NCBI GenBank assembly: GCA_045586505.1
Contig: JAZNAL010000053.1
Location: 30,109-94,108, forward strand
Source: Candidatus Flemingiibacterium sp.
GTDB taxonomy: Bacteria > Bacillota > Clostridia > Oscillospirales > CAG-272
Reading direction: 5' to 3'
Length of the DNA: 64,000 nucleotides
Made by a program: the position numbers and the translations under genes. The notes below the pieces were generated by a model. The model ran no database searches. It saw only the letters and a program-made list of their open reading frames with translations, and had not been told where the DNA came from. Shown here one piece after another: positions 15,152-54,417 of the stretch (within the stretch, counting starts at the first letter, position 1; each line of letters starts with the position of its first letter).

Positions 15152-15249
15152 GTAATTAACATTTTGATGATAAAATTATCAATATAATAGGCGTTTTATA
15201 CTCTGCCGATGGTATTTGCAATTAATAGGGTGGTAAGGAGATGTTGACA

Positions 15250-18036
15250 ATGCAAGGTAAGCCGATTCTCATTGATTATTCGGAAAACGATTTGCACAAG
15301 TTAAAAATTGAATACGTTTCCGATGATGCCCTTGATAATGTGCTGAATGGAGAGCACGGCTATCACATTTATCATGTAAGAATGCTCACGGAATTTCTCC
15401 TTCGAGAGTTAAATTCGTACAAGCTCGAGAACACTCTTTCCGAAGAAGATATAGTCGCCATAGCGATGGCATCCGCGCTGCACGATATAGGTAAACTGCA
15501 AGTCCCTCAAAGTATCCTCAATTATCCGGGAACATTGTCTGCAGTTGAATACGATATAATTAAAAAACACTATGTGTTCGGCGAGCAGACAAACCGTGAA
15601 GCTGATTGCGGGGACATCTCTCCCAAAACGGTGGAGTATGCCGCGCAAATTGCCAGATACCACCATGAGCGCATTGACGGCACCGGATATCCCGAGGGAC
15701 TTCGAGGTGACGCCATTCCGCTGTGCGCGCAGGTCGTCGCCCTTGCGGATTCCTACGATGCGCTCACAAGCTCTCGCAGCTATAAGGAGGCATTTTCTCA
15801 GGACGTCGCGCTTCAGATGATTTCAAGCGGAATGTGCGGCGTTTTTGACGCGGGACTCGTTGAATGTCTTATGCGAGTGGTTAATCACCGCACATTGGTC
15901 ACCTTCAGAGAAAATCTACAGAAAAAACGCAGTGTTGTCGGGGAGTACAGCGATATCCGCTTAAAGCGAGTCCTGCTTATCGGAAATACCGAATACCTTA
16001 CCGAGGAGTTTGTTCATACAACCTTCCCGCAAAGTAAGGTCATGGTGGTGGGAAATACAGATCTCGGCGGCTCAGATCGAATAAAGCTCTTCCGCGTGCG
16101 TAAACCGTCTGTCAAGTCTATTCTTGAAACCTACGAATTTGACCTCATCGTCTTCTTCTCGACGGGACTGAAATTCCACTCTACCGATCAAAACGATGCA
16201 GAGGAGCTTCGTGAAGTCCTGCAGTTCTCCGCAGAGATGCAGAAAGGAATCAAAATTCTTTATCTTTCGCCACTCGATTCCTCGTTCAGCGAGCGAACTG
16301 ACAAAGCTATAATGGCATCCGCTAACGAAAAGCTTTGCGAGTTTTACGCAAAGCGCTATTCGCTCGATATTAAAACCGTACAGATTCCGTATCTATACAG
16401 TGCCCTATATAAAGGCGATTTCCTTTACGATGTGTTCGAGCAGGTATATTCGGGCAAAACTGTGTGTATTCCGGAAGCGTCCACTGCAAGGATGCATTTC
16501 CTCTCTCTCTTTGATTTGTCGGATCTGCTTATCCGTATCGTTGATAACTGGAAAGCAGGCAGCGGAGTTCTAAGCGTTGGCGATGAATTTCACCTCACTT
16601 TCGCTGATTTTGCCGAGAGGCTTAAAACAATCGCTCCGGGTGTAACGACGGAATTTACCGAGAGTCATACCGCCGGCATTACCAAAACCACTAACATGGC
16701 TCTGAGAAACGAGTACGGTTGGTTTGCGAAAATATCCGTTCTCGAGGATCTCGAGGATCAGTACGCGCTCTACCTTAACGCAAAAAAGGACGAAACAGAA
16801 ACATTATTTGACGCAATCAGGAGATGGCTTTCAAAGCATTCCTTTGCCATAAAGATCATAGAGCTGTTTCTGCTGTTTTTCCTGTCTGAACTGTTTATAC
16901 ATATAACCGACTCCGCCGTTATCTTTTCCATCGTTGATTTCAGAACGATCTTTATCGTGATCATGGCAACGCTGTATGGCTTGTCCTTCGGTATCGCCGC
17001 ATCGGCACTTGCCAGCGTTTCATATTTCATCGCAAAGGTCATGGCGGGAACAGATCCGTTGACCATATTTTACGAGCCCACAAATTGGCTTGCATTTGTG
17101 TTCTTTTTCCTGGTGGGTGGGCTTTGCGGCTACGTCAATCTGAAAAAAGAGGAGCACGGCAAATACCTCGAGGAGCAGAACAAACTGTTAGAAAACAAGC
17201 TTATCTTCACCGGAGAGATATACGAGGATACCCTTCGTGAGAAAAAGGACCTCAAAAAGCAGATCATCAGCTCAAAGGACAGCTTTGGCAAGATTTTCGA
17301 CATCACTCGAAAGCTAAACACCGTTGCTCCACAGCAGCTCTATCTTCGTACAATAGAAACATTTGAGGAGATACTCGAAAACAAGAGCATCGCGGTGTAT
17401 TCCGTAAACTCAAAGAACGCTTTCGGACGCCTTGAAGTTGCCTCCAGAGATCTTCTTGACATTGCCGCACGCTCCGTTTCTCTGCAGACCTACGCTCCTG
17501 TTGTCGAACAGCTTCGTGAGGGCGGTATATGGAAAAACACCGAGCTTAAAAGCGAATATCCCATGTATGCGGCAGGAGTTTGCCGCGGTGATGAGCTTGT
17601 GCTTATGATATTCCTGTGGCATGCGGATATGGGACAGCGCTCGCTTTACTACGTGAACCTTTTCAAGATTTTGCGTGACCTCGTACAGATGTCTCTTCTT
17701 CGCGCTTACGACTACGGCAATGCACTTATTGAAAAGCAGTATATCTCGGGTACACACATAATGAACGCCGAGAACTTTGAGGAGTGCGTACAGAATTTTG
17801 CCGCACTGGCGGAAAAGAAGGTGTCAACCTTCGTTGTGCTGGAATTTGACCTTAACGGTCACTCCCTGAAAGAAGCAAACGATATGCTTACGGGTAAGAT
17901 AAGGCTTAACGATATTCTTGGAATCACAAACGACGGCAAACTGCGCCTCATTCTCTCTCAGGCAACCGAAAAAGACATCCAGTTTATTTTGCCGCGATTT
18001 GAGGAGCTTGATATTACTGTCACCGTCGTGAAATAA
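15250..18036 (+). CDS. pelD: PelD-like c-di-GMP receptor (degenerate SDR, 4 TM helices, GAF, degenerate GGDEF with I-site) fused to an N-terminal HD-GYP phosphodiesterase domain
   Basis: The track start 15241 abuts the RBS, while ATG 15250 has 9-nt spacing from AAGGAG. HD-GYP motifs are intact: HDIGK (15481), KKH, HHERIDGTGYPEGL (15685) and ADSYDAL. The SDR-like region lacks the Gly motif (VLLIGNTEYL). TM block around aa 540-640. The C-terminal domain has RLND (17902) five residues before NDGKL, which occupies the GGDEF position. Confidence 0.85.
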   Translation: MQGKPILIDYSENDLHKLKIEYVSDDALDNVLNGEHGYHIYHVRMLTEFLLRELNSYKLENTLSEEDIVAIAMASALHDIGKLQVPQSILNYPGTLSAVEYDIIKKHYVFGEQTNREADCGDISPKTVEYAAQIARYHHERIDGTGYPEGLRGDAIPLCAQVVALADSYDALTSSRSYKEAFSQDVALQMISSGMCGVFDAGLVECLMRVVNHRTLVTFRENLQKKRSVVGEYSDIRLKRVLLIGNTEYLTEEFVHTTFPQSKVMVVGNTDLGGSDRIKLFRVRKPSVKSILETYEFDLIVFFSTGLKFHSTDQNDAEELREVLQFSAEMQKGIKILYLSPLDSSFSERTDKAIMASANEKLCEFYAKRYSLDIKTVQIPYLYSALYKGDFLYDVFEQVYSGKTVCIPEASTARMHFLSLFDLSDLLIRIVDNWKAGSGVLSVGDEFHLTFADFAERLKTIAPGVTTEFTESHTAGITKTTNMALRNEYGWFAKISVLEDLEDQYALYLNAKKDETETLFDAIRRWLSKHSFAIKIIELFLLFFLSELFIHITDSAVIFSIVDFRTIFIVIMATLYGLSFGIAASALASVSYFIAKVMAGTDPLTIFYEPTNWLAFVFFFLVGGLCGYVNLKKEEHGKYLEEQNKLLENKLIFTGEIYEDTLREKKDLKKQIISSKDSFGKIFDITRKLNTVAPQQLYLRTIETFEEILENKSIAVYSVNSKNAFGRLEVASRDLLDIAARSVSLQTYAPVVEQLREGGIWKNTELKSEYPMYAAGVCRGDELVLMIFLWHADMGQRSLYYVNLFKILRDLVQMSLLRAYDYGNALIEKQYISGTHIMNAENFEECVQNFAALAEKKVSTFVVLEFDLNGHSLKEANDMLTGKIRLNDILGITNDGKLRLILSQATEKDIQFILPRFEELDITVTVVK

Positions 18037-18048
18037 GAAAGGCGATAT

Positions 18049-18927
18049 ATGCTTTATATCATAGCTGCAGCCATGCATCTTCTTGTATGCCTGCTTGTGT
18101 TTATCGGAATTAAAACCGGATTGCTTTCGGTACATAAATATATGTTTTTCGTGGCGCTGTTGCTTCCGCTTTGGGGAGTGCTGATCGTGCTCATCCTGCA
18201 TTTTCAGATAGCATTTGATGCCACCGATTCTGCTGAGATCGGAGTCGAAAAATTAAAGCTCGAATCCGAGCTTTACAAAAGTGTTACCGTAGACGAAAAG
18301 AAAGCTGACACAGCGGTTCCCATCGAAGAGGCTCTGCTTATCAACTCGGCGAGAGAACGCCGCTCAATCATAATGGATGTTCTTAACGATAACCCCGGCG
18401 ACTACGTGGAATTCCTGCAAAAAGCAGGAAACAATGACGATACCGAGGTTGTACACTACGCCGTAACCGCAATGGTGGAGATATCCAAGGAAAACGACTA
18501 TATGCTTCAAAAGCTGGATGCGGAGCACGCCGCCAATCCGGACGATATAGGTATTCTTTCAAACTACATAGATTTTTTATGGAGTTGCCTCACTCAGAAC
18601 CTTATGCAAGGTCAGGTGGAGGTTATGAACCGCGAGCTTTTCGCACAGCTCATGAACAAAAAAATAGCCGCAGACGGGAATATCAACGATTACTCACGCC
18701 TTGCTGAAAATGAGCTGAAGCGCAAAAACTACGATACCGCAGGGGAAGTTATAGATAGAATTGGCGAAAAATGGCCGGATGCGGAGGAATATATCCTGCT
18801 TAGGATACAGTATCTCGCATCCCTTGGCAGAGGACATGAGATACAGGACTTCGTCAAAGAAACCGAAAACAGTCACACTTATATGTCATCAAAAACGAAG
18901 GAGGCGCTTGCGTTTTGGGCGAGCTGA
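18049..18927 (+). CDS. pelE: PelE-like protein (two N-terminal TM helices and a helical-repeat domain)
   Basis: Called from its position between pelD and pelA. N-terminal hydrophobic helices (MHLLVCLLVFIGIKTGLL, FFVALLLPLWGVLIVLILHF) are followed by an alpha-helical TPR-like region. There is no diagnostic motif, so the call is mainly by synteny. Confidence 0.6.
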   Translation: MLYIIAAAMHLLVCLLVFIGIKTGLLSVHKYMFFVALLLPLWGVLIVLILHFQIAFDATDSAEIGVEKLKLESELYKSVTVDEKKADTAVPIEEALLINSARERRSIIMDVLNDNPGDYVEFLQKAGNNDDTEVVHYAVTAMVEISKENDYMLQKLDAEHAANPDDIGILSNYIDFLWSCLTQNLMQGQVEVMNRELFAQLMNKKIAADGNINDYSRLAENELKRKNYDTAGEVIDRIGEKWPDAEEYILLRIQYLASLGRGHEIQDFVKETENSHTYMSSKTKEALAFWAS

Positions 18928-20771
18928 TAAACGGCATTCGCAGATTCAGCTTTAGGGGAATACTCGTTATCCTACTGGTGTTTTCGCTCATTTCGGCGGT
19001 TCTCCTCGTGGAGCTGAGCGGAATACGGGCAAACCGTTATGACAGAAAACTTGAACTAATGCCGCAGGATAAGATAGTCACAAAGGATGTTGCCTGTGAC
19101 TCTTTAGATAAAAACGCACTTTTATTGCACCATAGCGGCGATGAATCCTCGTGCACAGCGTATGAGCAGTTTACTGTAATCCTTGCCGACATGAAGGTCG
19201 GGTATGCTTCGGTAGACCTTGCACAGGATATACTGCCACCCTTTGACGGATTTGCGCAGGTCATCGTACTTTTGTCCGATCTTACTCCTCTTGGACAGTC
19301 GGTTGCCGATCTTTGCGACTTTGTACATGACGGTGGTGCCGCATGGTTTCCGCTGGTGCTTGAAACCAACGTATATTCCTCCGCGATCTCACAGATAATC
19401 GGAATTGACGATCTTTCGCCCGACTACTATACGGTAGAGAGCATTTATCCCGGAGAGGAGTTTATGATAGGCGGAGGACGTGCGTTTGCCGTTCCCGATC
19501 CCTTTGAATCCTCGCTTACTGTTGTACTCTCGGATGATGCAAAGGTGTATGCCAGCGCAGATGGCCCCGACGGTGTGCCGCTTGTTTGGAAAAAAGAGTA
19601 CGGAAGCGGTGTTTTTGTAGTGGACAATATCGGTATTTACGACAAAGCGATGCGCGGATTTTATGCGGCATCTTATAGCTTGCTTTCGGATGTGTGCGTG
19701 TATCCTGTTATCAACTCGTCCACGTTTTATCTTGACGACTTTCCCTCGCAGATACCGAGCGGCAACAGTGAATACATACAGCGCGACTATCACACGACCA
19801 TCCGTGATTTCTACATAAACATCTGGTGGCCGGACATGATGAATTTCGCCGACGAATACGGCTTAAAATATACCGGACTTGCCATCGAATCCTATGACAA
19901 TAACGTTGACGGAACAGCAGATGCTGCACCCGACACGGGTACATTCCTTAATTTTGGAAATATGCTCCTGCGAAAAGGCGGCGAGCTTGGATACCACGGT
20001 TATAACCATCAGCCGCTCGTTTTGTCGAACAGAGATTACAAGGATCATTACGACTACAAAACCTGGCAGTCTGAGTCCGCAATGAAGGCGGCGTTTGACG
20101 AGCTTATCGAGCTTTGCGACACACTTTTCCCCGATGCTGAGTTTTCGCTGTACGTTCCGCCCTCAAACCTTTTGTCAGACGAGGGCAGACAGTTTTTGAT
20201 AAAGGAATATCCGCACATAAAAACCATTTCCGGAATTTATTTTGAGGATATTGCTGATGCGGAGCTTGATTTTGGATGTATGCAGGAGTTTTCGGTGGAT
20301 GAAAACGGCATCGTCGATCAGCCGCGCGTTATATCCGGTTTTATTTTGGATGACTTCCAAAATTTAGCCGCTGTATCTGAGCTGAATCTGCATTTTATAA
20401 ACAGCCATTTTACCCACCCCGATGATGCGCTTGACCCCGAGCGTGGTGCGGAGCTTGGCTGGGGTGAGATGAAGCGACGTTTTGATGTTTTTCTGTCGTG
20501 GCTCTATGAATCAGCGCCGGGGCTTCGTAATCTTACCGGCACCGAGGCGTCTGCTGCTGTACAGCGATATGCGGCAGTGGCGCCGAAAACAGAGTATACC
20601 GATAGCGGCGTGAAAATAACTATTGGCAATTTCTGCGACGAGGCACAGTTTCTCGTCCGATTTAACGAAAAATCACCGGAAAGTGTTACCGGTGGTGAAC
20701 TCACCCATCTGACGGGTGGTCTTTATCTGCTTCGTGCAACAGCGGATACCGTTGACATTACACTTAAATAG
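18915..20771 (+). CDS. pelA: PelA-like polysaccharide deacetylase of the Gram-positive type (DUF2194-like)
   Basis: TTG start 10 nt after AAGGAGG, with a 13-nt overlap with pelE. N-terminal TM anchor. GGELGYHGYNHQPL deacetylase-type His motif. Position matches the pelDEA(DA)FG order. Confidence 0.75.
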   Translation: MGELINGIRRFSFRGILVILLVFSLISAVLLVELSGIRANRYDRKLELMPQDKIVTKDVACDSLDKNALLLHHSGDESSCTAYEQFTVILADMKVGYASVDLAQDILPPFDGFAQVIVLLSDLTPLGQSVADLCDFVHDGGAAWFPLVLETNVYSSAISQIIGIDDLSPDYYTVESIYPGEEFMIGGGRAFAVPDPFESSLTVVLSDDAKVYASADGPDGVPLVWKKEYGSGVFVVDNIGIYDKAMRGFYAASYSLLSDVCVYPVINSSTFYLDDFPSQIPSGNSEYIQRDYHTTIRDFYINIWWPDMMNFADEYGLKYTGLAIESYDNNVDGTADAAPDTGTFLNFGNMLLRKGGELGYHGYNHQPLVLSNRDYKDHYDYKTWQSESAMKAAFDELIELCDTLFPDAEFSLYVPPSNLLSDEGRQFLIKEYPHIKTISGIYFEDIADAELDFGCMQEFSVDENGIVDQPRVISGFILDDFQNLAAVSELNLHFINSHFTHPDDALDPERGAELGWGEMKRRFDVFLSWLYESAPGLRNLTGTEASAAVQRYAAVAPKTEYTDSGVKITIGNFCDEAQFLVRFNEKSPESVTGGELTHLTGGLYLLRATADTVDITLK

Positions 20772-20780
20772 GAGTAAGCT

Positions 20781-22211
20781 GTGAGGATCTGTTTGGTTTT
20801 GGAAGGATGCTATCCGTTTATCAACGGCGGCGTTTCCACTTGGATGCATCAATACATAAACGAAATGCCCGAGCATGAGTTTGTGCTGTGGGTTATCGGC
20901 GCGAAAGCCGAGGATAGGGACAAGTTTGTCTACACCTTGCCCGATAATGTAGTAGAGGTTGAGCAAGTGTTTCTCGATGATGCTCTGCGTGTTAAAGATA
21001 CGGGCATATTCAATCATCGCTTCACAGACGATGAAAAGGAAGCACTCAGACGTCTTGTATCTTCCGATAAACCAAACTGGGATTTGCTTTTTGAGATGTA
21101 TCAGGTACGACGTATCAATCCTATGTCCTATCTGAAAAGCGAAAGCTTTCTTGAAACGCTCACCGAGACCTGCCGTCGTGAGTTTCCGTTTACTGCGTTT
21201 TCCGATACATTTCATTCGGTGCGCTCACGCCTTTTGCCCGTGCTTTACCTGATGGGTTCAAGGATCCCGCAGGCGGACTGTTATCACGCCATCTGCACGG
21301 GATACGGAGGACTTCTCGCTTCAATGGCGGCTTATATAACCAAAAAGCCCATGCTCCTTACCGAGCACGGTATCTACACAAGAGAACGCGAAGAGGAGAT
21401 CATCCGCGCAAAATGGGTAGCGAGAGCTTTTAAGCCTCACTGGATAGATTTCTTTTATATGCTCTCCGATCTTACATACGAGCGCGCGTTTCGCGTAACA
21501 TCTCTTTTCACCCGTGCCATGCATACCCAGATCGATATGGGATGCGATGCCACAAAATGCAGGGTTATCGAAAACGGCATCAGCTATGAGCGGCTTTGTG
21601 ATATTCCTCTTAAAGAGGACGACGGCATGGTGGATATCGGTGCGGTCGTGCGTCTTGCGCCTATCAAGGATATCAAAACTATGATATATGCCTTTTTCGA
21701 GCTTTGCGCCAGACGTGACAACGTGCGCCTTCATATTATGGGAGGCGTTGACGATCAGGAATACGCTGACGAATGCTATGCGCTCGTAAAACAGCTCGGA
21801 CTTGAGGATAAGATCATTTTCACGGGACGAGTTAACATCATCGAATATTTTGAAAAGCTGGATTTCACTTTGCTTACAAGCATTTCCGAGGGACAGCCGC
21901 TGTCCGTGCTTGAATCCTTTGCCGCAAGACGTCCTGCGGTAACAACGGATGTCGGCTGCTGCAGCGAGCTTCTTAACGGAGGGCCCGGGGACACGCTGGG
22001 CAAGGCGGGATATTTCGCTCCTCCTATGCAGCGTTCAAAGCTTGCTGACGCCATGGAGCCGCTTTGTGAATCAAGAGAGCTTCGTCTTAAGATGGGCGAG
22101 ATTGGTCAGAAGCGCGTATACGAAAATTTCAGATACATTATTATGCTCACGAAATACCGTGATCTTTACAAAGAGGTGGAAAAGGAATGGCCGGAATTGG
22201 CTTCGAACTAA
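20781..22211 (+). CDS. pelF: PelF-like GT4 glycosyltransferase
   Basis: GTG start after AGGAG. N-terminus RICLVLEGCYPFINGGVSTW is the PelF/DUF3492 signature. The C-terminal GT1/GT4 fold has SISEGQPLSVLESFAARRP. Confidence 0.9.
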   Translation: MRICLVLEGCYPFINGGVSTWMHQYINEMPEHEFVLWVIGAKAEDRDKFVYTLPDNVVEVEQVFLDDALRVKDTGIFNHRFTDDEKEALRRLVSSDKPNWDLLFEMYQVRRINPMSYLKSESFLETLTETCRREFPFTAFSDTFHSVRSRLLPVLYLMGSRIPQADCYHAICTGYGGLLASMAAYITKKPMLLTEHGIYTREREEEIIRAKWVARAFKPHWIDFFYMLSDLTYERAFRVTSLFTRAMHTQIDMGCDATKCRVIENGISYERLCDIPLKEDDGMVDIGAVVRLAPIKDIKTMIYAFFELCARRDNVRLHIMGGVDDQEYADECYALVKQLGLEDKIIFTGRVNIIEYFEKLDFTLLTSISEGQPLSVLESFAARRPAVTTDVGCCSELLNGGPGDTLGKAGYFAPPMQRSKLADAMEPLCESRELRLKMGEIGQKRVYENFRYIIMLTKYRDLYKEVEKEWPELASN

Positions 22212-23644
22212 AAAAGCTTTTTGCAAAAAAAGGCGTGCTGAATTCCGCCAAAGCATACGGCTACGCGGCGGTAATATGCACAGGACCTATGCTTCTCGGC
22301 GTTTTATTGCTGCTTGGTATAATGGCGCTCTGCACCTTTTTCGAAGTTGGACTACCCACCAGGGAACTGCTTATATGTATGATCACCTACACTCTCCTCG
22401 CGTCGGTCACGGTATCTTCCTTCTTTTCGATGGTGGTAACAAGATACGTGGCGGATATGCTCTTTGAAGAAAAAAATCAAGCGGTTCTGCCCGCATTTTG
22501 GGGTTCTACCGTTATTATGTTGGGAATCGGCGGTATTCTGTACGGTGTTTTTCTCGTTTTTTCAGGAGCAACGCTTCTTCAGGGAATACTTTGCTTCACA
22601 CTTTTTGGTGAGCTTATTATCGTATGGAACGCCATGAGCTTTCTGTCGGCGATCAAGGACTATAAGGGAATATTCCTATCATTTCTTGCGTCTGTTGCGG
22701 TAAGCATACTCCTGGGTGCATTTCTCTTGTGGCTGAAGCTTCCCATTATCGAATCGCTTCTGTTCTCGGTGAGTGTCGGATACGGAGTTATGCTTATATG
22801 GGACGTTATTCTGCTTCACCGCTATTTTCCCCATACAACGCTCGGGGCTTTCACCTTCCTTAAATGGATAGATGCCTTTCTGCCGCTTGCCCTCTCGGGA
22901 TTTTTTATGAACATCGGTATGTTTTCGCATCTTGTGATAATGTGGTTTTCAGATATCGGAGTCAGGGTACACGGCTTATTTTACGGTGCGCCGTGGTACG
23001 ACGTTCCCGCACTGCTTGCGTTCATGACCGCACTTATGACTACCGTCAATTTCGTAGTGTCGGTTGAAGTAAACTTTTACCCCAAATACCGCAATCATTA
23101 CAGCCTTTATAACGACAAGGGCACCATCGACAACATAAAGCAAGCCGAAAAGGAAATGATCGGCACGTTGAAAACCGAGCTGTTCTATACGGCACTCAAG
23201 CAGCTTTTGTTCACCGCAGCCGTTATTGCACTGGGCGGATATCTTCTAGATCTGCTTCCGCTGGGATTTAACGAGGTCATGCGTGGATATTTCCGTACCC
23301 TTTGTGTGGGATACGGCGTTTATGCCATCGGAAATATGCTTATGCTTATATTACTCTATTTTACGGATTATAAGGGCGCACTTATCACAACAGCAGTCTT
23401 TGCCGCGGCGACAGTTGGTTTTTCGGTGTTATCGCTGTTATTTTCGAATATCTACTACGGCTTCGGCTTTTTGATCGCTGCTATGATATTTGCCGCCGTA
23501 TGCGCCGTAAGGCTTGATTATTTTACAAAACGGCTTCCGTACTATATTCTGTCGGTTCAGCCCCTTGTATCAGAGGACCGGTCCGGAATGTTTACAAGAC
23601 TCGGAGTATTTCTTAGTGATAAGCTGGAGGAAACAAAAAAATGA
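22187..23644 (+). CDS. pelG: PelG-like polytopic exopolysaccharide export protein
   Basis: N-terminus MAGIGFELKKLFAKKGVLNSAKAYGYAAVICTGPM is the PelG signature. About 12 TM helices. 25-nt overlap with pelF. Confidence 0.9.
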   Translation: MAGIGFELKKLFAKKGVLNSAKAYGYAAVICTGPMLLGVLLLLGIMALCTFFEVGLPTRELLICMITYTLLASVTVSSFFSMVVTRYVADMLFEEKNQAVLPAFWGSTVIMLGIGGILYGVFLVFSGATLLQGILCFTLFGELIIVWNAMSFLSAIKDYKGIFLSFLASVAVSILLGAFLLWLKLPIIESLLFSVSVGYGVMLIWDVILLHRYFPHTTLGAFTFLKWIDAFLPLALSGFFMNIGMFSHLVIMWFSDIGVRVHGLFYGAPWYDVPALLAFMTALMTTVNFVVSVEVNFYPKYRNHYSLYNDKGTIDNIKQAEKEMIGTLKTELFYTALKQLLFTAAVIALGGYLLDLLPLGFNEVMRGYFRTLCVGYGVYAIGNMLMLILLYFTDYKGALITTAVFAAATVGFSVLSLLFSNIYYGFGFLIAAMIFAAVCAVRLDYFTKRLPYYILSVQPLVSEDRSGMFTRLGVFLSDKLEETKK

Positions 23645-25404
23645 GAAAAAAGATTTTATCCGCCGCATGCCTGCTTTTGACAGCTATCATGTGTATACCC
23701 GGATGCGATGACACATTTGATTCAGCTGTGAACTCAAACCTCGGCACGACTATTGATAAATCCGAAATACAGACAGAAGAAAACATTCACATACGTGATA
23801 AAGATCTCTTGTATGAACAGCAGAATAATACCGAAATCGTAACGATGTATCTCACTGTTTCCGTGGGCAATTCCGCCGAGAATACCGATCACACATGGGA
23901 GGAAATAAACACCTATTCGGCTTACGATTATGAAGAAATGGGTGTAGAGCGGTATAAAATCGCCGGACTTATTCAGGTAGGCGACGAAAACGGACTGATC
24001 CCAGGTGAGCTTGGCTACGGTCAGGTCGCACCCAACTGCACGGTGCAGATACGCGGTCAGTCTTCCAGCCGAAACGTGCAGAAAAACTATAAAATCAGCA
24101 TCAAAGACAACAAGGGTGACTGGCGTGGGCAGCAGACAATAGCACTCAACAAGCATCAAGGCGACGGTCTTCGCTTTCGCAACAAGCTCGGATTTGATCT
24201 TCTCACGGACATCGACCAGCTGATGAGTCTTCGCACAACCTTTGTACGCCTTTATGTGAAGGATCTGACCTCGGGAGCCGACGCGAAATTCGAGGATTAC
24301 GGAATCTATACGCAGGTTGAACAGCTTAACAAGACTGCTCTCGAGCGTCACGGACTTGACAAGAAAGGGCATCTTTACAAGATCAACTTCTGCGAGTTTT
24401 ACCGTTATGAGGACACGATAGTTGCAAAGGACGATCCAAGATACGATACCACAAAGTTTGAAGAGATACTCGAGATCAAGGGCGATGACGATCACACGAA
24501 GCTTATACGTTTGCTTGATCGCATCAACGACTATTCAATCCCCATAGAAACCATACTTGAAGAGGATTTTGACATCGAAAACGTGGCATATTGGATGGCA
24601 TTTCAGCTGCTCGTCGGAAATGTTGACACCCAGAGCCGAAACTTCTATATGTACAGCGCACAGAACGATAACCGTTGGTACATACTCTCCTGGGACCTTG
24701 ACGGCTCCTTCAAACGGACGGAATACGAGCTTCTCGGACGAAACGACTACAGCGAGTGGGAATCCGGAGTTAGTAACTATTGGGGCAATGTCTTATTCCA
24801 AAGATGCCTGAAATCGGAAACGTTCCGTGGTGTGCTCACTGCAGCAGTGGATGATATTTATGCCAAGCTCTGTGACGGACGTGTGGAGGAATATGCAAAA
24901 GCTTATGCCGATCTTCTGAAGCCGCTGGTTTTCACCGGACGTGATGCTCGCTATATGCCGGTTACAGCCCCGCAGTATGATATTATCGCATCCGCACTCG
25001 TTGATGAAATTAAGGATAACTACCAAAGACTCAAGGATTCATTTGGCAAGCCTATGCCGTTCTACATAGGTGTTCCGGAAAACAGCGCTCAAAAGCTGAG
25101 TGTAATATGGGAAGCGTCGTACACCTTCGATGCCGAGGCTATCTCATACAGCTTTGAGCTTGCGCGTGACTACACCTTTGAAAATCCCATAGTAAAGCTT
25201 GATAACCTCACAATCCCTATGGCGGAGTTTGACGGTCTGTCAGAGGGACAGTATTTCATTCGCGTAAAAGCCTATGACGCCGGCGGTCAGTCACAGACGG
25301 CGTTTGATTCCTATATAACCGACAGCGGTAAGGTATACGGCACAAAATGCTTCTATGTTGACGCACGCGGCAATGTCGTGGAGGATGTTTATGTCGAAGA
25401 CTGA
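23641..25404 (+). CDS. CotH-family atypical kinase, predicted lipoprotein, with a C-terminal Fn3-like domain
   Basis: ATGA overlap with the pelG stop. Lipobox MCIPGC. CotH-type motifs NKLGFDLL, GHLYK and SRNFYMYSAQNDNRWYILSWDLDGSF. Confidence 0.85.
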   Translation: MRKKILSAACLLLTAIMCIPGCDDTFDSAVNSNLGTTIDKSEIQTEENIHIRDKDLLYEQQNNTEIVTMYLTVSVGNSAENTDHTWEEINTYSAYDYEEMGVERYKIAGLIQVGDENGLIPGELGYGQVAPNCTVQIRGQSSSRNVQKNYKISIKDNKGDWRGQQTIALNKHQGDGLRFRNKLGFDLLTDIDQLMSLRTTFVRLYVKDLTSGADAKFEDYGIYTQVEQLNKTALERHGLDKKGHLYKINFCEFYRYEDTIVAKDDPRYDTTKFEEILEIKGDDDHTKLIRLLDRINDYSIPIETILEEDFDIENVAYWMAFQLLVGNVDTQSRNFYMYSAQNDNRWYILSWDLDGSFKRTEYELLGRNDYSEWESGVSNYWGNVLFQRCLKSETFRGVLTAAVDDIYAKLCDGRVEEYAKAYADLLKPLVFTGRDARYMPVTAPQYDIIASALVDEIKDNYQRLKDSFGKPMPFYIGVPENSAQKLSVIWEASYTFDAEAISYSFELARDYTFENPIVKLDNLTIPMAEFDGLSEGQYFIRVKAYDAGGQSQTAFDSYITDSGKVYGTKCFYVDARGNVVEDVYVED

Positions 25405-26113
25405 ACGCTACCGTCACGAGTGGAAGTATCTTATTGATACCGCGCAGAAGGAGCTTATCTGCAAGCGTCTGTCACCCTTTCTCGAGCTTGACAAGCACGC
25501 AAAGGCAGGCGGTTACATGATACGGAGTCTGTATTTTGATGATTACTTCAACACCGCGTACGAGGAAAAGGATGCGGGTGTGCTTGAACGAAAAAAATAC
25601 CGTATACGCATCTACAACTGCTCGGACAGCAGTATAAAGCTTGAGCGAAAAAAGAAATTCGGCGCCTACATCTTCAAGGAGTCGGCAACGCTCACGAGGG
25701 ACGAGGTCTACAAAATTCTCGACGGCGACTACGAATTTTTGCTGCACAGCAAATATCCGCTTTGCCGTGAATTCTATGTGGAAAGTGTCAGTAACGTAAT
25801 GCGTCCGCGCACTATCGTTGACTATGACCGCGAGCCGTGGATTTTGGATGCCGGAACGGTGCGCATCACTTTTGATATGGACGTACGTGCCGCTGTGGGA
25901 AGCTTTGATATTTTCGACGACACGCTTCCCGCACTTTCCGTGCTTGAGCCGGGCAAGTGTGTAATGGAGGTAAAATACACCGAATTTCTGCCGAAGTTTG
26001 TGCGCGACATTTTACCGGACAGGGCATCCGAGTTTACAGCAGTGTCGAAATATGTGCTTTGCTATGAGAAGTCAGAGTATATGCGAAGCTTTAAATATTG
26101 GTATGAAAATTAA
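25391..26113 (+). CDS. VTC-domain (polyphosphate-polymerase-like triphosphate tunnel) protein, cytoplasmic
   Basis: The track ORF starts at 25355. ATG 25391 follows GGAGGA and overlaps the cotH stop by 14 nt. Tunnel-strand motifs RHEWKYLI, IRSLYFDD, KYRIRIY, IKLERKKK, VRITFDMD and VMEVKY. Confidence 0.8.
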   Translation: MSKTERYRHEWKYLIDTAQKELICKRLSPFLELDKHAKAGGYMIRSLYFDDYFNTAYEEKDAGVLERKKYRIRIYNCSDSSIKLERKKKFGAYIFKESATLTRDEVYKILDGDYEFLLHSKYPLCREFYVESVSNVMRPRTIVDYDREPWILDAGTVRITFDMDVRAAVGSFDIFDDTLPALSVLEPGKCVMEVKYTEFLPKFVRDILPDRASEFTAVSKYVLCYEKSEYMRSFKYWYEN

Positions 26114-26127
26114 TATGGAGGATGACT

Positions 26128-26799
26128 ATGAGTGTACAGGACTTTATAAAAAAATCAATTCTTGAGTCAGGCGCATTTGACGGCGTAACCGTGGCGAATG
26201 CCGCTCTCGGACTCCTAATCGCTCTTATCATGGGTGCCGTGATATATTTTGTGTATAGAAGATTTTATACGGGTGTTATTTATTCACGTTCATTTGCTAT
26301 AACGCTTGTAGGTATGACGGTGCTGACCGCGATGGTTACTCTTGCTATAAGTACAAACATCGTAATCTCCCTGGGTATGGTCGGTGCGCTGTCTATCGTA
26401 CGCTTCCGTACCGCCATCAAGGATCCGCTTGACCTGCTATATCTCTTCTGGGCTATTACAACGGGAATCACCGCGGGTGCAGGAATGTATGCGCTCGTTG
26501 CAGTAGCGGCACTTGTTATGACACTTATGATAATTCTATTTTATCATAAGCAGCAGAAGGGACGTATCTACATACTTGTTGTTCACTATACCGGCGATAC
26601 GGCAGGAGATAATGTGATCCGTGCATTTGGTAAAATGAAGTATTTCATTAAATCCAAAACCGCAAGAAAAGAAAAAACTGAAATGGCAATCGAAGTATTT
26701 TGCAAAAATAACGATACGTTCTTTATGGATAAGATCCGCGCGATTGACGATGTTGAGGATGCAACATTAATTCAATATAACGGAGAGTATCATGGATAA
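26128..26799 (+). CDS. DUF4956-family integral membrane protein
   Basis: ATG 26128 lies 6 nt after GGAGGA (alternative 26122). Four TM helices. Contains the signature LGMVGALSIVRFRTAIKDPLDLLYLFWAI. Soluble C-terminal tail. Confidence 0.8.
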   Translation: MSVQDFIKKSILESGAFDGVTVANAALGLLIALIMGAVIYFVYRRFYTGVIYSRSFAITLVGMTVLTAMVTLAISTNIVISLGMVGALSIVRFRTAIKDPLDLLYLFWAITTGITAGAGMYALVAVAALVMTLMIILFYHKQQKGRIYILVVHYTGDTAGDNVIRAFGKMKYFIKSKTARKEKTEMAIEVFCKNNDTFFMDKIRAIDDVEDATLIQYNGEYHG

Positions 26800-28882
26800 A
26801 ATATTAAACGGAGTAAAAGACTTCGCCACAATCAAACGATACCTTGAAGCGATCAATCAGACGACGGATGATTTTCTGTTTGTATATGATATAAAAAACA
26901 ACCAGAATCATTTTTTTGGCTATATAAATGATGTCTTTGACTTATGTAGTGCTAACAAAGACACCGTCACCTCTGAAGAACTGCTTACCATAGTGCATCC
27001 GGCGGACAGGAAAACGGTTACACGGGAATTCGGGGAAATATGCAAAGGCATTAAGGATTCTCACGACCTTAATTTCCGTATGTTCAATAAGCGCGGTGAA
27101 ACCGTTTGGGTCAACTCAAGGGGAAAGATCCTCCACGATGAAAACGGTACTCCCACACTTGTGCTCGGACGTTTGTCAGAGGAGGCTTTGCGTCATCTTT
27201 TCAATCCTCTTACAGGACTGTGGAATAAAACAAAATTGCGTGATGATCTAAAAAACAGGCTTGAGCTCGGTGCCGGATGGCTTATGATGCTTGAAATTCC
27301 AATGCTGGCGGACATCAACTTAAGCCACGGAAGAAGCTTCGGCAACCAGTTGCTCTGCGATGTTGCGGATATTCTCGAGGAGATTGACAAAGTAGAAGGA
27401 TCTTATCATATTGACCACAATAATTTTGCCATCATTCTTGAAGATACATCCCAAATGACAGTGGAAGCAATCTATCGGAAAATCAGTGATACACTTCAGG
27501 ATAAGTGCAGTCTTTTTGCCGGCGTTGTGCCGATAGACACAAGTGTTTTCATTGATGTGTCACAGCTTGTTGACTGTGCAAACATCACGCTGAAAAAAGC
27601 AAACGAAAATCCTATCGGTGGAATTGAGTTCTTCTCCGCCGAGGAGGTTCAGCAAAGAATCACCTCGCTGATGCTTCTCGAAGAAATGAAGGAAAGCGTA
27701 CAGAACGGATTTGAAGGCTTCGAGGTGTACTATCAGCCGCAGATAAAAAGCGGGAACTACGAGCTTCACGGCGTTGAGGCACTGCTTCGCTATGACTCCC
27801 CCAAACGTGGTAGGGTGTTCCCGGACGAGTTTATTCCGCTGCTTGAGCAGTCGGGACTTATTGAGCCGGTTGGTATGTGGGTGCTTGAAACAGCGCTTGC
27901 ACAGTGCAAAAAGTGGCGGGAGAGCATCCCGACACTTCATGTGGCGGTGAACTTTTCCTCCGTTCAGTTTGAGGATCGCCGGCTTGGTGAGAAGATTGTG
28001 GATGCGCTTAAGAGCGCAGAGCTTCCCGGGAATGTACTCACTGTGGAGCTTACTGAATCTGTTCAGCTTAGCGGCAATAAGCATTACTACAACCTCATCA
28101 AATATATAAAGTCGTACGGAGTACGTTTTTCCATCGACGACTTCGGTACAGGCTATTCAAATCTCGGCTATCTGAAGCAGCTTGACGTAAGCGAAATCAA
28201 AATTGACCGAAGCTTCGTGTCCGAGATCGAAAAAAATACCTACAATTACCGACTTATCAGTAACGTAATTGAATTTGCGAAAACCAACTCAATATATGCG
28301 TGCTGTGAGGGTGTCGAAACGGCAAAAGAGCTTTCAATACTTGAGCCACTTCAAGCTGATTTCTTCCAGGGATATCTCTTTGACAAGCCCTGCACTGCCG
28401 ATGAGATCGCACGAAAGTACATTTACAAATCCTCCGATGAGTACAAGGCGCGAATGGCGGCTATCGAGGAGATAGCCCGTTTTAAAGAGCAATTCGGAAC
28501 GATACACTTCGATCCTAAAAACGTCCTTCGTGCAAACGATATCGGACTGTGGATCATTCGGATTGACGAGAAAAATAACCGACGCGAACTGCACGTTGAT
28601 GATGTAATGGAGCGCGTTCTGGGACTTAAGGAAAAGGTATCTCCGAGTGAGTGTTACGACTATTGGTACAGCCGCATTTCTCACGAGGACAAGCAATATG
28701 TGGATAACTCCGTGAACGTGATGATAAATGGCGGAAAGGCAGTACAGCTGGGCTATCGTTGGAATCATCCGGATGTCGGTCAAGTGACCGTACGCAGCAG
28801 CGGAATACGAACACAGGATGAAAGTGGTAAGATAGTGCTTGAAGGATATCATCGTATACTTACCGGAGTTGAAGGCGCATAA
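26792..28882 (+). CDS. PAS, degenerate GGDEF, EAL and PAS domains: c-di-GMP phosphodiesterase
   Basis: 8-nt overlap with the upstream stop. The GGDEF position reads DHNNF, which is degenerate. EAL motifs are intact: EALLRY, ELTES, DDFGTGYSNLGYL, KIDRSF, EGVET and QGYLF. Confidence 0.9.
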   Translation: MDKILNGVKDFATIKRYLEAINQTTDDFLFVYDIKNNQNHFFGYINDVFDLCSANKDTVTSEELLTIVHPADRKTVTREFGEICKGIKDSHDLNFRMFNKRGETVWVNSRGKILHDENGTPTLVLGRLSEEALRHLFNPLTGLWNKTKLRDDLKNRLELGAGWLMMLEIPMLADINLSHGRSFGNQLLCDVADILEEIDKVEGSYHIDHNNFAIILEDTSQMTVEAIYRKISDTLQDKCSLFAGVVPIDTSVFIDVSQLVDCANITLKKANENPIGGIEFFSAEEVQQRITSLMLLEEMKESVQNGFEGFEVYYQPQIKSGNYELHGVEALLRYDSPKRGRVFPDEFIPLLEQSGLIEPVGMWVLETALAQCKKWRESIPTLHVAVNFSSVQFEDRRLGEKIVDALKSAELPGNVLTVELTESVQLSGNKHYYNLIKYIKSYGVRFSIDDFGTGYSNLGYLKQLDVSEIKIDRSFVSEIEKNTYNYRLISNVIEFAKTNSIYACCEGVETAKELSILEPLQADFFQGYLFDKPCTADEIARKYIYKSSDEYKARMAAIEEIARFKEQFGTIHFDPKNVLRANDIGLWIIRIDEKNNRRELHVDDVMERVLGLKEKVSPSECYDYWYSRISHEDKQYVDNSVNVMINGGKAVQLGYRWNHPDVGQVTVRSSGIRTQDESGKIVLEGYHRILTGVEGA

Positions 28883-28919
28883 ACTCGCAATAAATCAAGC
28901 AATACCAAGGAGCAAAAAA

Positions 28920-30476
28920 ATGAGGACTATTCAAAGCAAAATACTGTTAGTTGTAATTTCCGCGCTTATTGTGATTACTGCGATAGTAACCTCCATCGCA
29001 GTCGGTGTAACGCATAATATCATGCATAAGGATGCGGACAGAATTTTAAACAATGTTTCCGAGAAGGAAGCCGCATATATCAATGATATGCTGAACGATT
29101 TTATGCAGTCGTCGGCAATTATGGAGCACTACGCACTACATGAGCTTAGCAGTGTGAGTGCGCTGAATAATGAATCCTACCGTGACGAATATATAGAGGA
29201 AATATGCCACCTTTTTGACGAGGTTGCACTTAATACCGCCGGAACAACCGCATATTATCTCTGCTTCTCACCCGAGGTGACGGGTGGTGTTACTTCCGGA
29301 TTTTACTCAAAATTCAAAGAGGATGGCGTGTACGAGCTTTCAAAAGAGGAGTTTGCGGAGCTTGACCTTTTTAATGCGAACTTTATTAAGGAAAGCGGAT
29401 TTGACGTGATTGGATCCGGCAACATATGGCTGCAGCCCCGAAGGAGTACCTTTGCCCCCGACGATACGGTTGTCTCCTACCTTACGCCACTATACAAGGA
29501 AAATACCTTTTTAGGATTCCTCGGCTTCAACATGGATTTTGAGTACCTGCTGGGTCTGGTAGGCGAAATAACTGTTTACGATAACGGTCATGCTTTACTG
29601 CTGAGCAGCGACAAGCAGACCTGCTACAACCCTGCTGAGGATATCCATATTTCGCAGGATTACGCCGAGGCTACAACAGCTCTTAAAAACGGGATGAACC
29701 TGGAGCTGCGTGCAGCATATGTGGACATCCAAAGCGGCATACGTCCAATGCTGAGCTATATAATCGGCGCCTTTTTGGTGGTACTTGTGCTTGCGATTTT
29801 GTATACCTTCTTTGTAACGGACAAGATCGTTACGCCGCTTAAAAAGCTCACTTCCGCGGCAGGCAGCATCTCATCAGGTGTACAGGACGTGAATCTCATT
29901 GTCGATTCAAATGATGAGATTGGCATACTCTCCCGTGTACTCAGCGACACTTATGGAAAAATTCGAGAGTATTCCACATATATAAACGCTCTTGCATACA
30001 GAGATTCGCTGACGGGCATCAAGAACAGCACGGCGTACGCTGAGGCAATTGATGAGCTCAACAAGGAGATCAATCTCGGCAACCCATCTTTCGGCGTAAT
30101 TGTTGCAGACATAAACAATTTGAAGAAGACAAATGACACCTACGGACACGATGTTGGAAACGAGCTTATCGTTCATTCCGCAAGAATACTCACCGATATA
30201 TTCAAAACAAGCGCTGTATACCGAATAGGCGGTGATGAATTTGCTATTGTTTTAAAAGGAAAGGATCTTGAGCGGCACCGCGTTCTCATTGAAAAAATGG
30301 ATGTTGCGTTCTCTGCCGATTACATAGCGGTAAACGATGAAACCGTACCGGTTTCAATAGCACGAGGAGTTTCTGTATTCGATCCGTCAATCGACCGTGT
30401 ATATGCAGACGTATTTGCTAAGGCAGACCACGCTATGTACTTGAACAAGGAAGATATGAAGGTTGCTTGTGAGTAA
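28920..30476 (+). CDS. Membrane sensor diguanylate cyclase (extracytoplasmic Cache-like domain, HAMP, GGDEF)
   Basis: The track ORF starts at 28839. ATG 28920 lies 7 nt after AAGGAG and gives MRTIQSKILLVVISALIVITAIV (TM1). Second TM helix MLSYIIGAFLVVLVLAILYTFFV. HAMP-like segment. Intact RIGGDEFAIV, and no RxxD I-site upstream of it. Confidence 0.9.
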   Translation: MRTIQSKILLVVISALIVITAIVTSIAVGVTHNIMHKDADRILNNVSEKEAAYINDMLNDFMQSSAIMEHYALHELSSVSALNNESYRDEYIEEICHLFDEVALNTAGTTAYYLCFSPEVTGGVTSGFYSKFKEDGVYELSKEEFAELDLFNANFIKESGFDVIGSGNIWLQPRRSTFAPDDTVVSYLTPLYKENTFLGFLGFNMDFEYLLGLVGEITVYDNGHALLLSSDKQTCYNPAEDIHISQDYAEATTALKNGMNLELRAAYVDIQSGIRPMLSYIIGAFLVVLVLAILYTFFVTDKIVTPLKKLTSAAGSISSGVQDVNLIVDSNDEIGILSRVLSDTYGKIREYSTYINALAYRDSLTGIKNSTAYAEAIDELNKEINLGNPSFGVIVADINNLKKTNDTYGHDVGNELIVHSARILTDIFKTSAVYRIGGDEFAIVLKGKDLERHRVLIEKMDVAFSADYIAVNDETVPVSIARGVSVFDPSIDRVYADVFAKADHAMYLNKEDMKVACE

Positions 30477-53289: not shown

Positions 53290-54197
53290 TCCTTTTTCTC
53301 CTTGGGTTTGTGGGATGTTGTATCGATCATCTCTGAAAGATGGGTAAATTCGTTAATACTAAAACGTCCGAGTAAGTACAGGCTTTCTTGATCACCGTAC
53401 CGCACGGTGTTGATATGGGCGTCCGTGGTCAGCGTGACGCGCACGCCCGATGAACGCAGTACAGCTTCCGCTGTGGTATCCCATTTCCCGTGAGGATAGG
53501 CGAATACCGTGGGAGTGTACCCGAGATGCATTTCCATAAGCGCGCACATTGCGGCGTGGTCGGCGGCAAACACCGATCCAAATACCGCCTCTGACTCTGA
53601 AGCAAGCCTTGCCGCATATTCGCGGATGATCCCCGATTCATAGGGTGCGTACATATGCATATCATAGCTGTGACTGCCGAAGGTGATAAGTCCCCCCGCT
53701 GCGGCAATTTGTGCCTGCATCCATGAAAAATGGGGGACGATACTATTTCCCGTGTCCTTGTAGGTATCGCATCCCACAAGTGATCCGATAATGCAGATAG
53801 TGGCGGGGATGTTATACTTTTCGAGTATAGGCAGTGCCAGCGTGAGATTTGATTCATAGCCGTCGTCAAATACTATGCAGACCGGCTTTTCGGGAAGCGA
53901 ACCTCTGCCGTCGGCATAAGCGATTATCTCATCAAAGGACACAGCGGTGTAGCCCTTCTCAATAAGCTGCATGAGCTGGGTTTCGAAGGTCTCCGGTGTT
54001 ACAGTGACACTTCCGTCGCCGGTATCGGAAAGATGATGGTACATCAGTATCGGGAGGGAAACGGTTTCCTTTATACTGCTGTGCCTGCAGGCGGATGAGG
54101 GTGCGGCTATAACAAAAATAAGTATGACAAAACAGCAAAGCCGCAGTATGAGCCTGCTACTATAATATATTTTACAACATTTCAAAATAAAAATCAA
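53286..54197 (-). CDS. Polysaccharide deacetylase (NodB homology) with an N-terminal membrane anchor
   Basis: Contains LPILMYHH, CIVFDDGYESN and FGSHSYDMH. ATGA overlap with the downstream GT gene. The start (TTG 54197) is uncertain. Confidence 0.8.
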   Translation of the reverse strand: MIFILKCCKIYYSSRLILRLCCFVILIFVIAAPSSACRHSSIKETVSLPILMYHHLSDTGDGSVTVTPETFETQLMQLIEKGYTAVSFDEIIAYADGRGSLPEKPVCIVFDDGYESNLTLALPILEKYNIPATICIIGSLVGCDTYKDTGNSIVPHFSWMQAQIAAAGGLITFGSHSYDMHMYAPYESGIIREYAARLASESEAVFGSVFAADHAAMCALMEMHLGYTPTVFAYPHGKWDTTAEAVLRSSGVRVTLTTDAHINTVRYGDQESLYLLGRFSINEFTHLSEMIDTTSHKPKEKKE

Positions 54198-54201
54198 TAC
54201 C

Positions 54202-54230
54202 TTGACAAAATCTTTTTATTGTGGTATACT
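54202..54230 (+). promoter_or_regulatory. Promoter for tRNA-Leu(TAG)
   Basis: TTGACA, then 17 nt, then TGgTATACT. It lies about 28 nt upstream of the tRNA. Confidence 0.6.
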
Positions 54231-54257
54231 ATTCTACAGTCGTGATTTTTAAAATAT

Positions 54258-54341: not shown

Positions 54342-54349
54342 ACAAAAAT

Positions 54350-54378
54350 CCGCGAGGGCAAAGCCCTTGCGGTTTTTT
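54350..54378 (+). terminator. Rho-independent terminator after tRNA-Leu
   Basis: CCGCGAGGGC-AAA-GCCCTTGCGG followed by T6. Confidence 0.75.
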
Positions 54379-54401: not shown

Positions 54402-54417
54402 AAAATGCACAGCAAGA

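Follow-up and report, generated by a model that had tools for sequence, protein, structure and literature searches.

A CotH-family kinase, a VTC-domain protein and a DUF4956 membrane protein next to pelG in an uncultured Clostridia bacterium: a candidate module for phosphate chemistry across the cell envelope

Three genes that directly follow pelG in an uncultured gut Clostridia bacterium raise the question of what a kinase, a putative tunnel enzyme and a membrane protein contribute to the production of the Pel polysaccharide. The role of the Pel accessory genes is a question posed in two recent papers. The genes lie in a stretch of 64,000 nucleotides (nt) from Candidatus (Ca.) Flemingiibacterium sp. 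(contig JAZNAL010000053.1, positions 30,109 to 94,108), the whole of which is called here the window. An earlier interpretation made from the letters alone, the sequence-only reading, had assigned the three products to the CotH, VTC and DUF4956 families, and all three assignments lie beyond the Pfam cut-offs:

23641 to 25404, + strand: CotH-family kinase, predicted extracytoplasmic lipoprotein (PF08757, E = 9e-67)
25391 to 26113, + strand: soluble VTC-domain (triphosphate tunnel) protein, putative polyphosphate (polyP) polymerase (PF09359, E = 5e-32)
26122 to 26799, + strand, with a likely true start at 26128: DUF4956 membrane protein (PF16316, E = 5e-10)

The core of this system is the VTC-DUF4956 pair, accompanied by an exchangeable extracytoplasmic partner. 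Neither the trio nor the pair is specific to Pel, and the loci found outside Pel contradict the statement of a 2025 study in mBio, whose authors had not found this synteny outside Pel loci and limited their proposal to "a role in phosphate metabolism" (PMC12345266).

A conserved pair with an exchangeable outside partner

The VTC gene is directly followed by the DUF4956 gene, with small gaps or overlaps, in 15/15 diverse loci, and this constant adjacency argues for a stoichiometric pair. The loci outside Pel number about 10 and do not amount to a systematic count. The distant CotH proteins among them were called by Pfam or by NCBI annotation; a hidden Markov model (HMM) built from the Pel-linked orthologues missed the distant CotH and was not used there. 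Every third partner carries a signal peptide, a lipobox or a membrane anchor, and it is usually a CotH with an intact catalytic Asp. In two contexts (L089/L090 and L094), the position of CotH is taken by a beta-helix/Cthe_2159 carbohydrate-binding lipoprotein or secreted protein (L094 9455-11353 and L089 192-2849).

The settings of the pair are diverse. In a metagenome-assembled genome (MAG) from a hydrothermal vent (L084), the pair stands with a convergent CotH gene and no polysaccharide genes are found nearby. The Pseudobutyrivibrio plasmid pNP95 (L091) carries the order GT2-CotH-VTC-DUF4956-GT4-acyltransferase together with pyruvyl transferases, a heteropolysaccharide locus. Nonomuraea (L093) has VTC-DUF4956-CotH, a further locus (L099) has GH16-GT2-VTC-DUF4956 with a chitin-synthase-like GT2, and in another (L097) the pair lies inside a capsule locus with Wzz, CpsD, CpsB and LytR. 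A large CotH joined to LTD, Fn3_assoc and CHB_HEX modules is found upstream of the pair in L088, an example of a third partner fused to carbohydrate-binding modules. On a Planococcus maritimus plasmid (L092), the order VTC-DUF4956-CotH-hypothetical-HEAT-chitin-synthase-like GT2 is the one published for the locus NELoc-2 of Clostridium perfringens, where genes CP4_0460-0468 include VTC, a membrane protein of about 225 amino acids (aa) and CotH as neighbours (PMC2879425). VTC, a membrane protein and CotH are neighbours in NELoc-2 and L092 as in the window; there, however, the genes that accompany them are not pel genes but encode a hypothetical protein, a HEAT-repeat protein and a chitin-synthase-like GT2, and CotH comes after the pair and not before it.

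A very large protein annotated "phosphodiester glycosidase family protein" is also encoded in L091 (1-234; 34348-40560 of the record), which hints at a polysaccharide with phosphodiester-linked sugars in that locus.

Among the close relatives, the module is always linked to pel. The scan of the GTDB species genomes gave at least 599 VTC matches, and the closest 80 of these (68-91% identity) were analysed; they are mostly from Collinsella, such that conservation is measured here within the Pel-linked clade and not in the whole family. The order pelD-E-A-F-G-cotH-VTC-DUF4956 is present in 80/80 of these loci, wherever the contig is long enough. Their hosts are Clostridia MAGs, Ca. Ornithomonoglobus, Blautia, Roseburia, Faecalibacterium and about 65 Collinsella. 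The conserved co-occurrence of the trio, which the sequence-only reading had proposed to examine by a neighbourhood census, is therefore seen across many genomes, including pel plus trio in the 80 closest loci. The gene placed after DUF4956 varies: it encodes DUF4832 in Faecalibacterium and others, and nothing related is found in Collinsella or Ornithomonoglobus.

Two further observations concern these relatives. The VTC protein of this Clostridia lineage is 68-70% identical to that of Collinsella (Actinomycetota; L012-L083) and the entire operon of pel and trio is colinear, which suggests that the complete operon moved horizontally between gut phyla. In L096 (5374-8640 of a 609-kb contig), pelF and pelG are broken into short open reading frames (ORFs), either pseudogenes or the result of long-read indel errors, and the genes for CotH (N-terminally shortened), VTC and DUF4956 are still open.

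The sequence-only reading knew of no example of the trio linked to Pel or to cyclic di-GMP (c-di-GMP); this is contradicted by both recent papers. Whitfield et al. (2020) listed cotH, a poly-phosphate polymerase gene, DUF4956 and DUF4832 as accessory genes that are contiguous with pelDEA(DA)FG in streptococci and clostridia, as well as a bifidobacterial variant in which a gene for a diguanylate cyclase (DGC) or phosphodiesterase (PDE) follows DUF4956 in place of DUF4832; they also reported that an N-terminal epimerase domain of PelD correlates with the accessory set (PMC7112168). In the 2025 study, each accessory gene was deleted in Streptococcus intermedius (SIR_1594/1593/1592): loss of the CotH gene lowered Pel, loss of the DUF4956 gene raised it, aggregation in 10% artificial sputum medium (ASM) fell by more than 50% upon either of the two deletions, and deletion of the DUF4832 hydrolase gave no phenotype (PMC12345266).

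The locus is, with near certainty, a further instance of this published Gram-positive pel accessory set, here followed by PDE and DGC genes. The same three families stand in the same order directly after pelG, with a secreted CotH, a middle gene annotated as polyP polymerase and a third product with several membrane passes and an ACT domain. The window resembles the bifidobacterial variant in that c-di-GMP genes replace DUF4832, but it has two of them and the variant one. The window differs from the published set in its PelD, which has an N-terminal HD-GYP domain and no epimerase domain recognisable by Pfam, and in its host, an uncultured Clostridia lineage near Ca. Ornithomonoglobus.

Predicted properties of the three proteins

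The VTC protein of the window has 240 aa and consists of the VTC domain alone, without an SPX domain and without a membrane segment. Pfam gives VTC only, with no CYTH match at E<=0.01. A search of the Protein Data Bank (PDB) with the single sequence (phmmer) returned noise only; a profile built from 56 diverse homologues in bacteria, which share 34-57% identity with the window protein, matches the catalytic domain of yeast Vtc4 (3G3Q) at E=3e-11. Counted along the profile alignment to 3G3Q/8I6V, the residues correspond as follows (window VTC first, Vtc4 second):

K12: K200
R71 / R73: R264 / R266
K87: K281
K96: K294
Y145 / R147: Y359 / R361
R158: R373
E193: E426
K195: K428
S219 / K220: S457 / K458

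In Vtc4, the triphosphate ligands are K200, R264, R266, K281, R361, K458, S457 and Y359, whose mutation reduces yeast polyP, and E426 is a Mn ligand; Vtc2/Vtc3 depart from Vtc4 at one residue only, K458, where they have Ile/Leu, and polyP is lowered by K458L or K458I (bioRxiv 10.1101/2023.01.27.525886). The mapped tunnel residues are invariant or at least 90% conserved across the 56 homologues, and the exit-side basic residues of Vtc4 (R196, K294, R373, K428) are likewise conserved in the bacterial family. Since all ligands, including E426 and K458, are conserved, the window protein looks like an active Vtc4-type enzyme. The retention of tunnel residues proposed in the sequence-only reading is hence borne out for every triphosphate and Mn ligand, and the motifs that it had quoted (RHEWKY, IRSLYFDD, KYRIRIY, IKLERKKK, VRITFDMD, VMEVKY and SIVRFRTAIKDP) are all found in the translations.

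The tunnel domain of the yeast complex (Vtc4/Vtc3/Vtc1; 3G3Q, 8I6V), with all its triphosphate and Mn ligands, K458 and the exit-side basic residues, is thus shared with the window protein. In both systems an obligatory membrane protein carries basic residues at the cytoplasmic face, by prediction in the bacterial pair. The predicted bacterial enzyme differs in lacking SPX, in being a separate soluble catalytic protein and in the motif of its first strand (beta1), which is RxExK with an invariant Glu (Glu10) instead of the RQTTK of Vtc4. The membrane partner also differs, being MgtC-like with an ACT domain in bacteria and a 3-helix DUF202 domain in yeast.

Among 10 long VTC forms scanned, taken from 150 diverse representatives, nine consist of the VTC domain and an N-terminal extension without other Pfam domains. 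Extensions of this kind, of 140-390 residues, occur in many bacterial VTC proteins; the four that were read (P0136, P0146, P0175, P0229) are disordered, with a high content of Pro, Gln, Arg and Lys. In P0121 (332 aa), the VTC domain (residues 12-216) is joined to a trigger-factor C-terminal domain; it is probably a chimera of assembly or gene calling and not a real fusion.

The DUF4956 protein appears to be distantly related to MgtC and to have an ACT-like domain in the cytosol. The motif SLGMVGALSIVRFRTAIKDPxD is common to 12 diverse members of the family, with R94, R96 and D104 invariant and K100 near-invariant. From a single sequence, AlphaFold2 (AF2) gave an unusable model with a predicted local distance difference test score (pLDDT) of 51; a shallow multiple sequence alignment of 60 sequences (72-92% identity) gave a pLDDT of 75, with the RFRTAIKD loop below 50. 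The latter model has five helices followed by a beta-alpha-beta-beta-alpha-beta domain (residues 147-218). It therefore departs from the 4 transmembrane helices of the sequence-only reading, a number also given in the 2025 paper, with which the present description otherwise agrees (PMC12345266). By charge distribution and the positive-inside rule, the 46-56 loop, the RFRTAIKD loop and the ACT domain are placed on the cytoplasmic side. Foldseek matches the C-terminal domain to ACT domains at E=1.4e-3, with the C-terminal domain of MgtC (2LQJ) at rank 20, and finds no PDB match for the membrane part; the DUF4956 profile had no meaningful match among PDB sequences. The Pfam MgtC model matches 10/12 diverse members weakly (best 2.2e-5) and does not match the window protein at E<=10. 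As in the MgtC family (Salmonella, Mycobacterium; 2LQJ), a multi-pass membrane domain precedes a cytosolic ACT-like domain. The RFRTAIKD signature, however, is confined to DUF4956, whose gene always has a VTC gene as its partner, and the window protein itself is unmatched by the MgtC model.

The CotH protein has a signal peptide with Cys22, a kinase domain at about 135-462 and a C-terminal Ig/FN3-like domain, for which the fn3/Ig matches are weak. It aligns to CotH of Bacillus cereus (5JD9) at E=3e-5. The two Asp of 5JD9 that are spaced by 23 residues are matched by D329 and D352; D228 and D251 of B. subtilis CotH have the same spacing, and there D228 is the catalytic Asp, D251 binds the metal, and mutating them inactivates the kinase (PMC7821199). 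D329, N334 and D352 are invariant in 83/83 orthologues. The lipobox IPGC is non-canonical, with Pro at -2; nevertheless, Gly21-Cys22 is invariant in 78/78 aligned orthologues and the orthologues carry canonical boxes (LLLSGC, FTGC, MTGC), which supports the lipoprotein call of the sequence-only reading. CotH is predicted to face outward and, judged from these residues, is probably an active kinase.

With Bacillus CotH (5JD9/5JDA) the window protein has in common the Pfam CotH domain, the two catalytic Asp and the Asn. It differs by its lipoprotein signal, an extra N-terminal region, the C-terminal Ig/FN3-like domain and a low identity, and also in its setting, which is vegetative polysaccharide production for the window CotH and the spore coat for Bacillus CotH. 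A spore-coat localisation with CotB/CotG substrates does not fit the lipoprotein signal or the Collinsella and streptococcal orthologues, which are unlinked to sporulation. The CotH of Collinsella (L012-L083) has a twin-arginine-type lipoprotein signal, MSRRRL.EAAAGALLLSGC (SRRRL...LLLSGC), and the Clostridia orthologues have Sec-type lipoprotein signals; the former suggests that the Collinsella CotH would be exported folded by the twin-arginine translocation (Tat) pathway.

A candidate trans-envelope phosphate module and its rivals

A cytosolic enzyme, an obligatory membrane partner, a partner on the outside and a setting in polysaccharide loci together point to a module of three compartments in which phosphate is transferred across the envelope, a reading adopted here tentatively. 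The cytosolic VTC tunnel enzyme would polymerise phosphate from ATP and dock on an oligomer of the MgtC-like DUF4956, whose loop with Arg94, Arg96 and Lys100 would face the cytoplasm, and the polyanion would be passed across the membrane. Outside, the CotH lipoprotein would act on the nascent polysaccharide or on a wall or matrix component. An active kinase on the outside needs a phosphoryl donor, and polyP, the expected product of a polymerase with an intact tunnel, would be the one high-energy phosphate compound that could be threaded out; the exported phosphoanhydride chain may then be the donor of CotH. Alternatively, the exported polyP might act as a counter-ion cross-linker of Pel, which, being partly deacetylated, is cationic and could be cross-linked ionically. 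The ACT-like domain of DUF4956 may gate the system in response to a cytosolic ligand. In this scheme we infer the synthesis of polyP, its export, the contact between VTC and DUF4956, and both the substrate and the donor of CotH. The idea of polyP export and cross-linking, already raised in the sequence-only reading, is plausible and is absent from PMC7112168 and PMC12345266. The three-compartment scheme is supported by the deletions of CotH or DUF4956 in S. intermedius, which alter Pel and aggregation, and by the presence of the module in unrelated polysaccharide loci.

Several points weigh against the trans-envelope scheme. MgtC is known as a regulator that binds other membrane proteins, not as a channel, and DUF4956 has no match to the yeast Vtc1/DUF202 channel by profile or fold search. 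No VTC-DUF4956 fusion and no second membrane domain were found among the 10 long forms. The analogy with a VTC enzyme and an attached channel is weaker than drawn in the sequence-only reading. To our knowledge, no kinase of the CotH fold or the protein-kinase fold uses polyP as donor, and a literature search for a link between CotH and polyP found nothing. The searched literature held no biochemical characterisation of any bacterial VTC protein, and the RxExK motif, closer to the ExExK of CYTH hydrolases, makes a non-polymerase activity of the tunnel possible. In L098 (VTC at 2059-3348, N-terminally extended), DUF4956 follows and no CotH is found within 10 kb. Deletion of the VTC gene (SIR_1593) in S. 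intermedius had no Pel or aggregation phenotype (PMC12345266); this, together with the opposite effects of CotH and DUF4956 loss on Pel, argues against a simple linear pathway.

In a regulatory explanation, DUF4956 might be no conduit but a membrane regulator that binds the Pel synthase complex or another membrane machine, damping its output via a ligand of the ACT domain, with VTC making or consuming cytosolic (poly)phosphate or ATP locally and CotH acting separately outside; this explanation is rather doubtful. MgtC of Salmonella lowers ATP and c-di-GMP and represses cellulose, which counts in its favour, as do the weak Pfam MgtC matches (best 2e-5), the ACT and MgtC matches of the C-terminal domain and an operon embedded in c-di-GMP genes (HD-GYP-PelD, EAL, GGDEF). 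The increase of Pel upon DUF4956 deletion is what is expected of a repressor (PMC12345266). However, the regulatory explanation does not account for the constant pairing of a fully catalytic VTC tunnel with DUF4956 (15/15 loci), nor for a third partner that in every case is extracytoplasmic and in many cases binds carbohydrate. Moreover, the window DUF4956 falls below the MgtC model, and streptococci have the trio although no canonical c-di-GMP control of Pel is possible in them (PMC7112168).

It is quite unlikely that the three proteins have independent functions, with CotH as an ATP-dependent Ser/Thr kinase acting on surface proteins or the Pel machinery, the role suggested for it by Whitfield et al. 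(PMC7112168), VTC and DUF4956 serving phosphate or polyP storage, and the linkage reflecting co-regulation. The alignment of the CotH Asp with those whose mutation inactivates the B. subtilis kinase, the different phenotypes of the CotH and VTC deletions (PMC12345266) and the occurrence of VTC-DUF4956 without CotH (L098, L094) would fit such an arrangement. Against it, every CotH orthologue is secreted or a lipoprotein and is thereby placed where ATP should not be available, the trio co-travels across phyla and different polysaccharide systems, and the VTC gene is translationally coupled at both of its sides.

Least probable is the explanation, overlapping with the others, that VTC is another tunnel metalloenzyme (for example a cyclase, a triphosphatase or a hydrolase of polyP or nucleotides) whose product is not polyP. 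The CYTH-like motif with Glu10 and the lack of SPX and of a fused membrane domain speak for it, as does the literature searched, which held no biochemical work on any VTC protein of bacteria, but Pfam recognises VTC and no CYTH, Lys220, the counterpart of the K458 that separates active Vtc4 from Vtc2/Vtc3, is invariant, and the whole basic tunnel is conserved up to its exit side.

The trans-envelope scheme can be extended beyond Pel. VTC/DUF4956 would then be a bacterial polyP synthase-exporter, composed of a Vtc4-like tunnel enzyme and a membrane protein of the MgtC superfamily, whose surface chains would be used by CotH or beta-helix partners to phosphorylate or cross-link nascent exopolysaccharides. 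This broader claim is unlikely; if true, the synthase-exporter would explain in general terms how phosphorylation outside bacterial cells can proceed without ATP, and it would serve repeatedly, in Pel, GT2-synthase, Wzy-type and capsule loci. The question of the Pel accessory genes is narrowed to a predicted tunnel enzyme with every polymerase residue, its invariable partner DUF4956 and a third component that appears always to be outside. The recurrence of the module in several polysaccharide systems, including the necrotic-enteritis locus NELoc-2 of C. perfringens, makes the question broader than Pel and turns a Pel curiosity into a general, testable hypothesis on the extracellular phosphate chemistry of bacterial matrices. 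If the role proved merely regulatory, the MgtC superfamily would still gain a new conserved enzymatic partner.

The operon and its surroundings

The trio is part of a series of 10 genes on the + strand, arranged head to tail from 15241 to 30476 in the ORF map of the window. The other seven genes are:

15241 to 18036, + strand: PelD-like, operon gene 1, with an N-terminal HD-GYP domain (Pfam HD_5, 3e-24 over residues 62-196)
18049 to 18927, + strand: PelE-like (by position and phmmer matches to the second pel gene in about 60 loci)
18915 to 20771, + strand: PelA deacetylase-like, DUF2194 (PF09960, 1.5e-148)
20781 to 22211, + strand: PelF glycosyltransferase (NCBIfam PelF NF038011, 4.7e-93, above cut-off; Pfam DUF3492 and GT1)
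22187 to 23644, + strand: PelG (PF16933, 1e-133)
26792 to 28882, + strand: PAS / degenerate GGDEF / EAL protein (Pfam EAL 1.7e-58, PAS_3, weak GGDEF match)
28839 to 30476, + strand, with a likely start at ATG 28920: dCache-HAMP-GGDEF diguanylate cyclase (Pfam GGDEF 1.4e-26, HAMP, dCache_1)

The Pfam scan gave no match for the PelE-like protein. Residues 244-931 of the first pel gene product align with operon gene 1 of L085-L087 and L096 (E=1e-96 to 1e-44).

All ORFs and junctions of the sequence-only reading were recovered at their positions on the + strand. The pelG stop overlaps the cotH ATG (23641) as ATGA. The end of cotH (25404) overlaps the VTC gene by 14 nt from the ATG at 25391, which is preceded by GGAGGA and is favoured as the start because the homologues have 240 aa. 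Between the VTC stop (26113) and a DUF4956 start at 26122 or 26128, the gap is 8-14 nt; the second start is likelier since GGAGG at 26117-26121 is better placed for it and the homologues have 223 aa. Finally, the DUF4956 stop (26799) overlaps the ATG of the PAS-EAL gene (26792) by 8 nt. pelG and cotH leave no space between them, and no convincing terminator lies at their boundary, where weak stems of 5-8 bp, all within coding sequence, are the only ones; a weak promoter-like site (9/12 matches) lies nearby at 23522-23550. A terminator or an independent promoter separating the trio from pelG, named beforehand as an observation that would count against the module, is thus not seen in credible or strong form. 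From these junctions the trio is translationally coupled to pelG, and it is almost certainly co-transcribed with pelD-E-A(DA)-F-G in this uncultured gut Clostridia bacterium. A recent insertion of the trio was also considered and is ruled out by the GC content at 22-28 kb (0.44-0.49), which is similar to that of its neighbours.

Three domains for c-di-GMP turnover are encoded within the operon itself, the HD-GYP of PelD and the EAL and GGDEF domains at 26792-30476. The N-terminus of PelD (15241-15950) is HD-GYP, with HHERIDGTGYP, at the position where the trio-bearing L085, L086 and L096 have a Pfam Epimerase domain; the Pfam scan of the window PelD gave no Epimerase match. The PAS-EAL protein retains the motifs EALLR and DDFGTGYS and is likely, on this basis, a c-di-GMP phosphodiesterase. 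The GGDEF motif is intact in the dCache-HAMP-GGDEF protein, whose homologue in L001 has 519 aa. Among the 80 closest loci, the pair of PDE and DGC genes after DUF4956 is found only in the window and in this nearest relative, L001. An Rfam scan of the window for c-di-GMP or other riboswitches returned tRNAs only.

Three features elsewhere in the window deserve mention. A P-type cation ATPase (E1-E2, Cation_ATPase_N/C) is encoded at 12146-14833 on the - strand, divergent from the pel operon. Classically, mgtC shares a transcript with the gene of the P-type Mg2+ ATPase MgtB, and the proximity of this ATPase to an MgtC-like DUF4956 may be a coincidence or a lead. A protein of 1157 aa, encoded at 8226-11699 on the + strand, has CHB_HEX_C_1 and Fn3_assoc modules and no further Pfam match; the same modules are joined to a CotH domain in the distant L088 (520-2964). 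Lastly, a segment of low GC content at 54001-58400 (0.36-0.40, against about 0.50 in its neighbours) starts beside a tRNA-Leu(tag) gene (54258-54341) and encodes an AraC regulator, a metallo-beta-lactamase (MBL)-fold protein, an enolase-superfamily (MR_MLE) enzyme and a short-chain dehydrogenase/reductase (SDR); it may be an acquired island for the catabolism of sugar acids.

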